DNA of 38,829 bases from Escherichia phage N7, in the sequence record MH717096.1; one strand, given 5' to 3'. Made by a program: the position numbers and the translations under genes. Each line of letters opens with the position of its first letter. The first letter of the stretch is position 1. The notes beneath the pieces were generated by a model. The model made no database searches, had not been told where the DNA came from, and saw only the letters and a list, made by a program, of their open reading frames with translations. Positions 21,466 through 36,515 of the stretch are shown piece by piece.

Positions 21466-22191
21466 TCACCTTTGACGGCAAGTTGCAGGTTTGCCACGGT
21501 TAACCTCCTGCGGCGGTTCTGGTAGCGGCATCCAGTGGGTTACGTTGCTAATCAGTCCATATTCATTAGTTTGAGGATGGCCACCGCGATCGTCTCCGTA
21601 TTTAAAACTTTCCATAAAACCATAATGCTTACCCCCATTAACGCTCACAAAGCCGTAATAAGCTGGTATAACGCCGATCTCACACGTAATCAGCAAAGGA
21701 AAACCAGTTCTCCAATTTAGCTCGCCGATTACAGGCATTCGCTCACTACAGCTTATCCAACCATCCGGAGTTACCGGAGAGTTGCCGGGTTCTTTAATGT
21801 GCAAGCGAGGCTCACCATCTTTTGGCTCAGGCCACTGGCGCTCCATGTTGATCTTCAATTTATCTTCCATAGCAGCGGTAATTTCAGCATCGCTGATGCC
21901 AGCACGGCGCTGTGCATCCCACAACAGAAACTGCATATCAGCCCACTCGCTAAGATCGTCTGGTTCGGCTGCGGCTTCCAGTGCCTCTTTTGAGAGATGT
22001 TTCAGCGGACCAATGGGGCCAACGCAGCCAAATGTGGAGTCAGACCATTTGGCATGCTCGTGGCGAATCTGTTCGCGTTCCAGTGATGCCAGTGCAATTC
22101 GTGCCAGTTCCATTTGTTCGCCACGAGTAAGTCCGTTATCAAGCGGATTTTTAATGAATAATTTGATACGTTCTTTGGTTATAGCGCTCAT
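21466..22191 (-). CDS. hypothetical early protein with DUF551-like C-terminus
   Basis: ATG at 22191 (MSAITKER...) with SD GGAGAG; C-terminal HWMPLPEPP motif recalled as typical of DUF551 prophage proteins. Confidence 0.55.
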   Translation of the reverse strand: MSAITKERIKLFIKNPLDNGLTRGEQMELARIALASLEREQIRHEHAKWSDSTFGCVGPIGPLKHLSKEALEAAAEPDDLSEWADMQFLLWDAQRRAGISDAEITAAMEDKLKINMERQWPEPKDGEPRLHIKEPGNSPVTPDGWISCSERMPVIGELNWRTGFPLLITCEIGVIPAYYGFVSVNGGKHYGFMESFKYGDDRGGHPQTNEYGLISNVTHWMPLPEPPQEVNRGKPATCRQR

Positions 22192-22192
22192 A

Positions 22193-22636
22193 TCACTCTC
22201 CTTTGATGCGAATGCCAGTAGCGCGGATTGCATCGATGACTTCAGAAACTTTGTATGCCATTACCGTTTGGTAATCATCGTGAAAATCTGTTCGATGAAG
22301 CATGCTGCTACGTTCCGGGAGCAGTATTTCCCGCGCTTTCAGTTCTGCAATGCGCTTTTTTGCTGCTTCCAGTTCATCCAGTAATTCCAGCACGGTAGCT
22401 GGATTGGCTGCGGCGATGAATTCAGCATTGGCCTGCTGTTCCATTTGGAAATCTTCATCGAAACCGCTTTCAGGATGCGCTCCTTCAATTCTGCAAATGG
22501 GAAGATATCCAACAACGTCACGATGAATTAGCGCATCATCACAATCAAATCGGCTCTCTCCATATTCGAGCGACCACACACCACACGTTGCTTTCTCTGC
22601 CTTTTCACGCAGTGCCTGATAGTCAATCTTGCTCAC
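22193..22636 (-). CDS. hypothetical early protein (Ead/Ea22-like by recollection)
   Basis: 147 aa; N-terminal ...YQALREKAEKATCGVWSL...; tightly packed in the early-left operon. Confidence 0.5.
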   Translation of the reverse strand: MSKIDYQALREKAEKATCGVWSLEYGESRFDCDDALIHRDVVGYLPICRIEGAHPESGFDEDFQMEQQANAEFIAAANPATVLELLDELEAAKKRIAELKAREILLPERSSMLHRTDFHDDYQTVMAYKVSEVIDAIRATGIRIKGE

Positions 22637-25760: not shown

Positions 25761-26729
25761 TTAGTAGGTTATTTTTGTTGCGAATACTTCGCCTTTTACG
25801 ATGGCTGTTATGATATTTTTAGCAACATCTTCTGATGCACCAACCTTGATAAGGTCAGCAAGTATTTTGTTATTTACTTCTTTCCGGTGAGCTTTATCCT
25901 TTGCTCTACGCTCTTCTTCGTCCTTGATTCTTTTTTCTTCTGCTATTCTGGCTTGCTCTTTTGCTTCAGCTTCGCGCCGGATTCGTTCAGCCTCCTCCTG
26001 TGCTTTTCGGCGTTCTGCTTCAATTGCCGCCTGCTTTTCTCTTTCAGCTCGTTCTGCTGCCTCTTTTGCTTCGCGCTGTGCTCGTTGCTCGGCTTCAATG
26101 CGTTCACGCTCTGCACGTTCCGCTGCTGCCTTAGCTTCTGCTTCTCGCCTTGCTGCTGCTTCAATTTCGGCTTTTGCCTTTGCTTCGGCTTCTGCTCTGG
26201 CTTTCTCTTCAGCTTCTCTTTTTAAGCGTTCTTCATGCTCTCGCTTTTCCTGCTCCGCTTTGAGTCTTGCCTCTTCTCTTTTGCGGTCAAATTCGCGATC
26301 CATCAAAATCGCTATTTCATGGTCAGACTCAATTTGCTTTGCGAGAGCTTCAGCTGCTGCCTTAGCTTCTTCTTCGGCTTTAATCCGTGCCTGTTCATCC
26401 TCATAATCAGTAAGAGGCTGGCGCGCCTTGGCTTTCAGTTCATCAAGGCGATCGCGCACTGTCTTGCGGTTGGCATCAATTAGCTTTGGAATTTCCTTCA
26501 GTTCAGCAACAAGGTCTTTGCCAAGACCATCGAGATATGTTTTCGTCTGCGCAACTTTATACGCCAGAGAAGCGATCTCCTTTCTGCCCTTTGCCGTTGT
26601 GATATCAGGCACAAAGGACATAACTTCACGTTCAACCTTTTGAAGGATTTCTTCAATCTGGTCGGCAGACTGAAATACAGTCATTGCATTTGCTTTTTCA
26701 ATAACAACTAAATCTGTTACTTCACTCAT
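25761..26729 (-). CDS. hypothetical charged coiled-coil protein
   Basis: ATG at 26729 with SD GGAGGA (ORF-track start at 26783 is an extension); ~150-aa E/A/K/R-rich repeat (AEEKARAEAEAKAKAEIEAAARREAEAK...). Confidence 0.6.
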   Translation of the reverse strand: MSEVTDLVVIEKANAMTVFQSADQIEEILQKVEREVMSFVPDITTAKGRKEIASLAYKVAQTKTYLDGLGKDLVAELKEIPKLIDANRKTVRDRLDELKAKARQPLTDYEDEQARIKAEEEAKAAAEALAKQIESDHEIAILMDREFDRKREEARLKAEQEKREHEERLKREAEEKARAEAEAKAKAEIEAAARREAEAKAAAERAERERIEAEQRAQREAKEAAERAEREKQAAIEAERRKAQEEAERIRREAEAKEQARIAEEKRIKDEEERRAKDKAHRKEVNNKILADLIKVGASEDVAKNIITAIVKGEVFATKITY

Positions 26730-26741
26730 ATATCCTCCATC

Positions 26742-26770
26742 AAAAAAATTGCCCTCACACTGGAGGGCAA
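26742..26770 (-). terminator. rho-independent terminator (tL-like) just upstream of the coiled-coil gene
   Basis: Minus strand TTGCCCTC-CAGTGT-GAGGGCAA followed by TTTTTTT. Confidence 0.5.
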
Positions 26771-26917
26771 AGAAGATTTCCAATAATCAGAACAAGTCGG
26801 CTCCTGTTTAGTTACGAGCGACATTGCTCCGTGTATTCACTCGTTGGAATGAATACACAGTGCAGTGTTTATTCTGTTGTTTATGCCAAAAATGAAGGTC
26901 GACTATGTGGCCTGAAA

Positions 26918-29084: not shown

Positions 29085-29164
29085 AGTTAAGACATCTTAA
29101 ATAAACTTGACTTAAGATTCCTTTAGTGGATAATTTAAGTGTTCTTTAATTTCGGAGCGAGTCT
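29085..29164. promoter_or_regulatory. OR operators with pRM/pR
   Basis: Operator-like TTAAGACATCTTAA and AATTTAAGTGTTCTTTAATT; pR TTGACT (29107-29112) and GATAAT (29129-29134). Confidence 0.6.
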
Positions 29165-31777: not shown

Positions 31778-31809
31778 AGGCCTGCTGATAATCGCAGGCC
31801 TTTTTATTT
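31778..31809 (+). terminator. rho-independent terminator (tR2-like)
   Basis: Perfect 8-bp stem AGGCCTGC / GCAGGCCT, 8-nt loop, then TTTTTATTT. Confidence 0.7.
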
Positions 31810-31825: not shown

Positions 31826-32266
31826 ATGAAAAAACTAACCTTTGAAATTCGATCTCCGGCACATCAGCAAAACGCTATTCACGCAGTACAGCAAATCCTT
31901 CCAGACCCAACCAAGCCAATCGTAGTGATCATTCAGGAGCGCAACCGCAGCTTAGACCAGAATCGGAAGCTTTGGGCTTGCCTTGGTGACGTCTCTCGTC
32001 AGGTTGAATGGCATGGTCGCTGGCTGGATGCAGAAAGCTGGAAGTGTGTGTTTACCGCAGCATTAAAGCAGCAGGACGTTGTTCCTAACCTTGCCGGGAA
32101 TGGCTTTGTGGTAATAGGCCAGTCAACCAGCAGGATGCGTGTAAACGAATTTGCGGAGCTATTAGAGCTTATACAGGCATTCGGTACAGAGCGTGGCGTT
32201 AAGTGGTCAGACGAAGCGCGACTGGCTCTCGAATGGAAAGCGCGATGGGGAGATCGGGCTGCATGA
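31826..32266 (+). CDS. ninB: NinB (Orf-family recombination mediator)
   Basis: ATG at 31826 (MKKLTFEIRSPAHQQNAIHAV...), about 146 aa like lambda NinB; first nin-region gene. Confidence 0.7.
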   Translation: MKKLTFEIRSPAHQQNAIHAVQQILPDPTKPIVVIIQERNRSLDQNRKLWACLGDVSRQVEWHGRWLDAESWKCVFTAALKQQDVVPNLAGNGFVVIGQSTSRMRVNEFAELLELIQAFGTERGVKWSDEARLALEWKARWGDRAA

Positions 32267-32790
32267 CTATCAAATCAAATACGCCAGCACACGACAAGGA
32301 CTGCTGGCAAACGCCGCTTTGGCTTTTTGATGCACTGGATATTGAGTTTGGATTCTGGCTGGATTCGGCAGCGAGCGACAAAAATGCTCTGTGCGCTCAC
32401 TGGTTAACTGAGGCCGACGACGCGCTCAATTCTGAGTGGATAAGCCACGGTGCAATCTGGAATAACCCACCGTACAGCAATATCAGGCCGTGGGTGGAGA
32501 AAGCCGCTGAGCAGTGCATACAACAGCGACAGACGGTAGTGATGCTTGTGCCAGAGGATATGTCAGTCGGATGGTTCAGCAAGGCTCTGGAGAGTGTTGA
32601 CGAAGTTCGTATTATCACTGATGGACGGATTAATTTTATCGAACCATCGACAGGGCTGGAGAAAAAGGGAAACAGCAAAGGATCCATGCTGCTGATTTGG
32701 CGACCGTTCATCAGTCCTCGACGGATGTTTACTACCGTATCCAAAGTGGCATTGATGGCGATCGGGCAGGGCGTCAGGAGGGCGGCATGA
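32263..32790 (+). CDS. phage orphan N6-adenine DNA methyltransferase (Dam-like)
   Basis: ATG overlaps ninB stop; NPPY motif (IWNNPPYSN) typical of N6-adenine methyltransferases. Confidence 0.7.
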
Positions 32791-32963
32791 GGCGACAGCG
32801 ACGAAGTATCACCGACATAATCTGCGAAAACTGCAAATACCTTCCAACGAAACGCTCCAGAAATAAACGCAAGCCAATCCCAAAAGAATCTGACGTAAAA
32901 ACCTTCAACTACACGGCTCACCTGTGGGATATCCGGTGGCTAAGACATCGTGCGAGGAAATGA
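32787..32963 (+). CDS. NinE-like small protein
   Basis: ATGA overlap with dam stop; [27 protein letters not shown]... resembles recalled lambda NinE. Confidence 0.5.
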
Positions 32964-35993: not shown

Positions 35994-36515
35994 ATGCTAA
36001 GCGAAACAGCGAAAGATATCGCAGGATATGAAGGTAAATACTCCGTAACTACTGATGGCCGCGTTTATTCTCATTCGAGAGTTGATGCTCGTGGAAGGTT
36101 ACAGAAGGGCAGATGGCTTAAGCCTGTTAATCATAGTGATGGTTACTTGTATGTAAATCTCCGCGACAAAGGAGCACTTAAAAAACATTACATTCACAGG
36201 TTAGTGGCGGCTGCATTCATTGATAATCCAAACTCGCTTCCGCAGGTAAACCACATAAATGGAATCAAGTCTGACAACAGAGTAGATAATCTTGAGTGGG
36301 TTACTGGCTGCCAGAATATGGTCCATGCAAGCAAGTCAGGATTGCTAAACCCAATCAGTGGTGAGCGTCACTATTGTGCAAAACTCACTACTGAGCAAGT
36401 GAAAGAAATACGTGCGTGCAAATCAATGTCACAGCGTGAAATGGCGAGAATGTACGGCGTATCAAAAGCAACAATTGCAGGAATTCTTAACTATAAGACA
36501 TGGGTTATTTATTAA
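35994..36515 (+). CDS. HNH homing endonuclease
   Basis: 173 aa; SD AAGGAG; N-terminal GYEGKYSVTTDGRVYS motif, HNH core (...NHINGIKSDNRVDNLEWV...), C-terminal HTH; AT-rich flanks. Confidence 0.8.
   Translation: MLSETAKDIAGYEGKYSVTTDGRVYSHSRVDARGRLQKGRWLKPVNHSDGYLYVNLRDKGALKKHYIHRLVAAAFIDNPNSLPQVNHINGIKSDNRVDNLEWVTGCQNMVHASKSGLLNPISGERHYCAKLTTEQVKEIRACKSMSQREMARMYGVSKATIAGILNYKTWVIY

Follow-up and report, generated by a model that had tools for sequence, protein, structure and literature searches.

A dam gene of the phage methyltransferase family PF05869 in the nin region of Escherichia phage N7, and its probable GATC specificity

Orphan methyltransferases are generally said to give protection from restriction or to control gene expression. 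In the nin region of Escherichia phage N7 there is a candidate for such an enzyme, and this raises the question of what it methylates, whether it acts alone, and what a phage would gain from it. The window studied here, meaning the whole stretch of DNA that was analysed, is 38,829 nucleotides long (sequence record MH717096.1). The gene, called dam below, is found at the following position:

32263..32790, + strand: dam open reading frame (ORF), ATG start, TGA stop, 175 amino acids, about 19.8 kDa

Its product is very probably an orphan DNA methyltransferase that makes N6-methyladenine (m6A) at GATC. The first line of evidence is family membership. The protein matches the Pfam family PF05869 ('DNA N-6-adenine-methyltransferase (Dam)') with an E-value of 1.6e-64 and 217.1 bits (cut-off 28.1) over positions 1-167 of the 169 in the profile, and the NCBIfam equivalog TIGR01712 ('phage N-6-adenine-methyltransferase') with 262.6 bits (cut-off 97.05) over positions 1-165 of 165. 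Both are full-length matches above the curated cut-offs and place the protein in this family. It also matches PHROG 111 (phrog_111, 'DNA methyltransferase') with an E-value of 4.2e-87, and its top PADLOC models are those named 'orphan methyltransferase'. Given profile E-values between 1e-64 and 1e-87 and a ratio of nonsynonymous to synonymous substitution rates (dN/dS) of about 0.1, dam is no chance ORF.

Two further phage enzymes belong to PF05869, T1 Dam, whose specificity is GATC, and the Dam of Haemophilus phage HP1 (E-values 1.7e-70 and 7.1e-75). The N7 protein is 32% identical to the former and 35% to the latter. T1 Dam differs from it in being 237 amino acids long, with a 35-residue N-terminal extension and internal insertions, and unlike N7 dam, neither the T1 gene nor the HP1 gene lies in a nin region. 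Conservation was followed through 80 related loci, one genome per species, from which 77 dam genes were reconstructed and in 68 of which the flanking ORFs were compared. The conserved motifs are:

32464..32475, + strand: catalytic motif IV, N68-P-P-Y71, found in 77 of 77 orthologues and invariant with T1 Dam and HP1 Dam
32299..32316, + strand: D13-C-W15-Q-T17-P18, in which D13, W15, T17 and P18 are invariant against T1 Dam and HP1 Dam
32359..32373, + strand: L33-D34-S-A36-A37, in which L33, D34, A36 and A37 are invariant in 73 orthologues

Taken together, the N7, T1 and HP1 enzymes have in common D13-x-W15-x-T17-P18, L33-D34-x-x-A37 (L33, D34 and A37 being invariant in this alignment as well), W66-x-N68-P-P-Y-S72, D99-x-S101-x-x-W104-F105, R122-x-x-F125-I126 and other invariant residues. 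The motif at D13 resembles motif X of the gamma-class amino-methyltransferases, which is part of the pocket for S-adenosylmethionine (AdoMet). The one at L33 would be a motif I-like AdoMet-binding loop, in a part of the AlphaFold2 model where the predicted local distance difference test (pLDDT) is below 50 (residues 33-38). The original prediction of an N6-adenine methyltransferase with an NPPY motif is borne out by the PF05869 and TIGR01712 matches and by the intact NPPY and N-terminal motifs. It had also proposed to look for disrupted catalytic motifs by alignment, and here all family-invariant residues are present.

Neither the protein itself nor a profile of 26 sequences gave anything meaningful in searches of PDB sequences, and no structure of the family is detectable by sequence. 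The AlphaFold2 model (26 homologues) has a predicted template modelling score of 0.78 and a mean pLDDT of 74.7, with low confidence for residues 31-60; its nearest folds are gamma-class enzymes, for example M.TaqI. The profile covers nearly the whole 175-amino-acid protein, and the N-terminal DxWxTP and LDxxA motifs precede motif IV. The order TP motif, acidic AdoMet loop, NPPY probably reflects a gamma-like layout that has no separate target-recognition domain. It is conceivable that an enzyme of 175 amino acids without such a domain recognises GATC in an unusual way, for example as an obligate dimer. How GATC is read under these circumstances is a question about the PF05869 family and not about the N7 window.

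The second line of evidence is a near-identical protein in another phage. The N7 protein agrees with orf32 (NP_050531.1) of the Shiga toxin 2 (Stx2) phage VT2-Sakai at 173 of 175 positions (99%) and is of equal length, the differences being two conservative substitutions, I60V and V163A. VT2-Sakai orf32 also lies between ninB and ninE, with gene boundaries that overlap alike in its annotation, although VT2-Sakai is an Stx phage whereas the N7 window belongs to a P22/Sf6/IME10-like lambdoid podovirus. It is the sole annotated DNA methyltransferase in the whole VT2-Sakai genome, and the sole open frame of at least 90 amino acids in it with a (D/N/S)PP(Y/F/W/H) motif. Since no other ORF of VT2-Sakai looks like a methyltransferase, M.EcoVT2Dam must by elimination be orf32. 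A 299-amino-acid ORF near int in the same phage was considered as a methyltransferase and rejected, as it encodes a DUF551 protein. M.EcoVT2Dam was reportedly named, cloned and characterised by Radlinska and Bujnicki in 2001. Forde et al. class it among the orphan methyltransferases and give GATC as its known target (PMC6602927), and both VT-2 and HP1 are among the phages listed with Dam-like genes or enzymes (PMC7556043).

A further member of the family comes from Staphylococcus aureus. The Dam protein of S. aureus phage 80 falls into PF05869, has only 141 amino acids (the last residue is Q141, and NPPY is at 64-67) and is about 34% identical to the N7 protein; its gene follows replication genes, as N7 dam does. 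It fits the published description of PamA and is probably the same protein. PamA expression makes S. aureus DNA sensitive to DpnI, and point mutants in NPPY abolish GATC methylation (bioRxiv 10.1101/2024.04.17.589803). PamA is also reported to alter host virulence gene expression from a prophage, which the E. coli gene is not known to do. Reports of GATC specificity and of dependence on NPPY thus exist for several enzymes from across the family. The m6A activity at GATC predicted for the N7 protein follows from its 99% identity to M.EcoVT2Dam, together with the reports on M.EcoVT2Dam and PamA.

The protein had been called Dam-like, and this is correct in one sense only. The name agrees with the GATC specificity that has been reported for enzymes near-identical or related to the N7 protein. 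Going by the specificity of the near-identical VT2-Sakai enzyme, the product would be equal to that of E. coli Dam and T4 Dam, namely m6A at GATC. Those two, however, form an alpha-class family (PF02086) with AdoMet, target-recognition and catalytic domains in alpha order, to which the N7 protein shows no match; it matches PF05869 only. Given its gamma-like motif order without a recognition domain, 'Dam-like' describes a reported activity and not descent.

Some points weigh against an active enzyme that is specific for GATC. The lack of a separate target-recognition domain could accompany low specificity, the nin region is dispensable in lambda, and 5 of the 77 orthologues are truncated. The first of these points bears on the possibility that the dam product has relaxed specificity or none, methylates most adenines and in this way protects broadly against many restriction enzymes, as in the Hia5, M.EcoGI/GII and phiP27/OS31 types. 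Non-specific adenine methyltransferases do occur in E. coli prophages and their relatives (PMC3299994; PMC6602927 Table 3; PMC7556043), but they come from other families. According to the analysis of Drozdz et al., the relatives of Hia5, Hin1523 and Nma1821 include the Dam enzymes of E. coli and T4, and all three have DPPY and FxGxG motifs; for Hia5, the relatedness to E. coli Dam, DpnM and T4 Dam comes from the authors' fold-recognition analysis (PMC3299994). The relaxed-specificity type of phage OS31 and phiP27 belongs to PF01555, as does the L24 protein of phiP27, which is 352 amino acids long. The N7 protein matches neither the Hia5 family nor that of phiP27 L24 and M.EcoGII, and placing it with the enzymes of Drozdz et al. 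or with the type of Serratia phage OS31 and phiP27 was rejected for this reason. As the near-identical M.EcoVT2Dam is listed as GATC-specific and PamA gives a GATC-type DpnI phenotype, we consider a non-specific enzyme improbable.

Whether the GATC-specific enzyme proposed here would act alone can be judged from its neighbours. According to the original prediction it is an orphan without a cognate restriction gene. Among the 60 ORFs of the window there is no match to a restriction-endonuclease model and no second methyltransferase, and dam is flanked by NinB and NinE, so that the term orphan is supported. The only endonuclease models matched in the window are homing-endonuclease models, which correspond to an ORF with NUMOD4 and HNH domains. 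PADLOC matches to RmrA, capH, DrmD, AbiO and Nhi were rejected, as they correspond to the helix-turn-helix domain of the cI repressor and to the ATPase domain of a DnaC-like loader. A constant partner gene adjoining dam was also sought among the 68 related loci with compared flanks, and none was found. NinB is directly 5' of dam in a minority of them, namely close relatives and a few others. Even there the neighbour varies: next to copies of the dam-ninE segment that are 98% identical, the NinB allele shares either 95-100% or only 44-45% identity with the NinB of the window. This contrast is seen between loci L008 and L009 on the one hand and L006 and L007 on the other (dam at about 949-1473 and 2461-2985). 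A near-identical dam next to divergent NinB alleles points to a mosaic recombination boundary that coincides with the ninB-dam ATGA overlap or lies very close to it. This argues for dam as a self-contained module that recombines at tightly packed junctions. The variable neighbours and divergent NinB alleles argue against an obligate partner protein.

In some prophages of Rosenbergiella, Yersinia and Raoultella, dam adjoins a methyltransferase-like ORF. In L018 (3' of dam) and in L030 and L036 (5' of dam) the neighbour resembles a DNA cytosine-5 methyltransferase with a PCQPFS-type motif, as judged from sequence only, while L025 and L054 have a different conserved ORF, of 236-256 amino acids, at this place. 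Such loci would each combine two orphan methyltransferases. Directly 5' of dam, NinB is replaced in some E. coli prophages by a 'NUMOD4 domain-containing protein'.

The absence of a fixed partner is also relevant to the idea that the dam product methylates RNA, for example rRNA, together with a partner protein. There is a precedent for this: Gong et al. found that M.EcoPA8orf6770P of an Stx prophage needs PNB-2 and prefers 16S rRNA (PMC10810198). Like N7 dam, M.EcoPA8orf6770P and M.EcoGV are prophage-borne, occur in related lambdoid prophages and have been annotated as 'GATC adenine methyltransferase'. They belong to a different family, however, MT-A70 with a DPPW motif, and are encoded near int. 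The N7 protein has no MT-A70 match and its motif is NPPY, not DPPW, and identity with the enzyme of Gong et al. was rejected on these grounds. Members of PF05869 methylate DNA at GATC in vivo, and the two very different NinB alleles, next to dam in a minority of loci, speak against NinB as an obligate partner. An RNA-directed enzyme is thus highly improbable.

The gene is widespread and well conserved. A tblastn search found dam relatives in 1900 phage records. The product reaches 95% identity or more in 243 of these, among them phage 434, the HK phages, IME10, Sf101 and many Stx1 and Stx2 phages. At 95-99% nucleotide identity, dam is present in 1566 of 5426 complete E. coli genomes (∼29%) at 2193 places; 1540 genomes have a copy that spans at least 80% of the gene, and the copies are mostly annotated as 'phage N-6-adenine-methyltransferase' between NinB and NinE. 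Most of the reconstructed orthologues (72 of 77) are full length with 166-191 amino acids. Against close relatives, dN/dS is 0.08-0.13, and its median is 0.127 for the 171 pairs in which dS is unsaturated, showing that dam is under purifying selection. That dam would be a decaying or inactive remnant, as the dispensable nin region and the truncated orthologues might suggest, is very improbable given its intact frame with all family-invariant residues, its low dN/dS and its presence in 1540 E. coli genomes. It is worth noting that three loci with 98-99% identity to this E. coli phage segment (L007, L008 and L010) are from public metagenome-assembled genomes that bear the labels Cellvibrionaceae, Bacillota and Segatella copri; most likely these are mis-binned phage or E. 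coli contigs. N7 dam is already known, being a catalogued, near-identical copy of a characterised enzyme, and with curated Pfam and NCBIfam models, hundreds of annotated phage records and a 99%-identical characterised copy it has little discovery value.

The surroundings of dam show how it would be expressed. The features are listed below, with ribosome-binding sites as read from the letters:

31826..32266, + strand: ninB (Orf-family recombination mediator), upstream neighbour, PF05772 with an E-value of 7.5e-54
32787..32963, + strand: ninE, downstream neighbour, PF05322 with an E-value of 7e-44
32263..32266, + strand: ATGA, overlap of the dam start ATG and the ninB stop TGA
32787..32790, + strand: ATGA, overlap of the ninE start ATG and the dam stop TGA
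32247..32252, + strand: GGGGAG, Shine-Dalgarno-like, inside ninB, 10 nucleotides 5' of the dam ATG
32776..32781, + strand: AGGAGG, Shine-Dalgarno sequence for ninE, inside the 3' end of dam
31778..31809, + strand: terminator-like hairpin and T-run just 5' of ninB, 8-pair stem with 6 GC pairs, then TTTTTATTT
29107-29134: pR-like promoter, upstream of dam

The program-made ORF list extends the dam frame 5' to a GTG at 32203. The PF05869 and TIGR01712 profiles, however, align from residue 2-4 of the ATG-started protein, and the ATGA start overlap is the same in 52 of the 77 orthologues; the real start is therefore 32263, and the originally given extent of the gene is correct. So is the claim that dam is translationally coupled between ninB and ninE, in view of the ATGA overlaps at both ends and the PF05772 and PF05322 flanks. 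On the 3' side, dam is followed by NinE, NinX (PF10765), NinF, a Rha/KilAC antirepressor-like protein, YbcO, RusA, NinH and Q. This places dam between the tR2-like intrinsic terminator (31778-31801) and Q. The hairpin sits at the position of lambda tR2, so that dam would probably be read only after N antitermination. By analogy to lambda, dam would be a delayed-early gene of the rightward operon, translated through its coupling to ninB, and its place 3' of the tR2-like terminator and 5' of Q suggests that it is made in lytic growth or on induction and not in the repressed prophage.

On the side of the enzyme, the proposed mechanism is that of the phage 'mini-Dam' family (PF05869/TIGR01712), comprising T1 Dam, HP1 Dam, M.EcoVT2Dam and PamA, i.e. 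AdoMet-dependent N6-adenine methylation. Catalysis would take place at the NPPY loop, and AdoMet would be held by the N-terminal DxWxTP and LDxAA motifs; the target would most likely be the adenine of GATC, the mark of host Dam, and the enzyme would act alone, with neither a restriction partner nor a constant neighbour. As for the benefit, P22 and lambda are not known to have a dam gene of the N7 type. The virion DNA of both is under-methylated by host Dam (PMC8022706). The phage enzyme might close this gap by keeping GATC fully methylated while phage replication outpaces host Dam. The expected gain would be a shield from MutH and from MboI/DpnII-type nucleases acting on unmethylated or hemimethylated GATC; the cost would be sensitivity to enzymes of the DpnI type. 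We infer both the timing of expression and the biological benefit, and the latter is much less certain than the enzymatic identity. The role of phage Dam-like genes is not established in the literature (PMC7556043), and what a second GATC methyltransferase does in a Dam-positive host is a question for the whole family, not one that is particular to the N7 window.

Of all palindromic tetramers, GATC is the one most strongly depleted in the window: there are 97 sites where a second-order Markov model predicts 189 +/- 14 (ratio 0.51). GGCC (0.52) and CTAG (0.54) come next. This depletion fits selection on GATC sites and is no proof of the mechanism proposed for dam. One of the GATC sites, at 32252, overlaps the end of the Shine-Dalgarno-like GGGGAG 5' of dam. 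A more speculative idea, which we regard as unlikely, is that the real job of dam is to blind GATC-dependent surveillance (mismatch repair through MutH, and perhaps SeqA binding) and not to block restriction. If true, recombination between diverged lambdoid genomes would be favoured, together with the adjacent ninB/orf and the downstream rusA and ybcO, and mosaicism would be promoted.

Some further ORFs in the window should be mentioned. An antisense frame of 174 amino acids with a GTG start (32397-32921, - strand) spans most of dam and extends into ninE; no evidence supports it, and it is in all likelihood a chance ORF. The ORF that accounts for the homing-endonuclease matches in PADLOC (35994-36512, + strand, 173 amino acids) has NUMOD4, HNH_3 and HTH_3 domains. 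It is found 3.2 kb 3' of dam, between Q with a pR'-like promoter-terminator and the lysis genes; probably a free-standing homing endonuclease has been inserted here, in the late leader region. In the early-left region, an ORF of 340 amino acids (25764-26783, - strand) has no Pfam or PADLOC match at an E-value of 0.001 or lower. Finally, an ORF of 255 amino acids (21469-22233, - strand) combines a dATP/dGTP pyrophosphohydrolase domain (PF04447) with DUF551. In phage HP1, dam is directly 3' of a MazG-like pyrophosphatase, and a link to the PF04447 ORF of N7 is probably coincidental.
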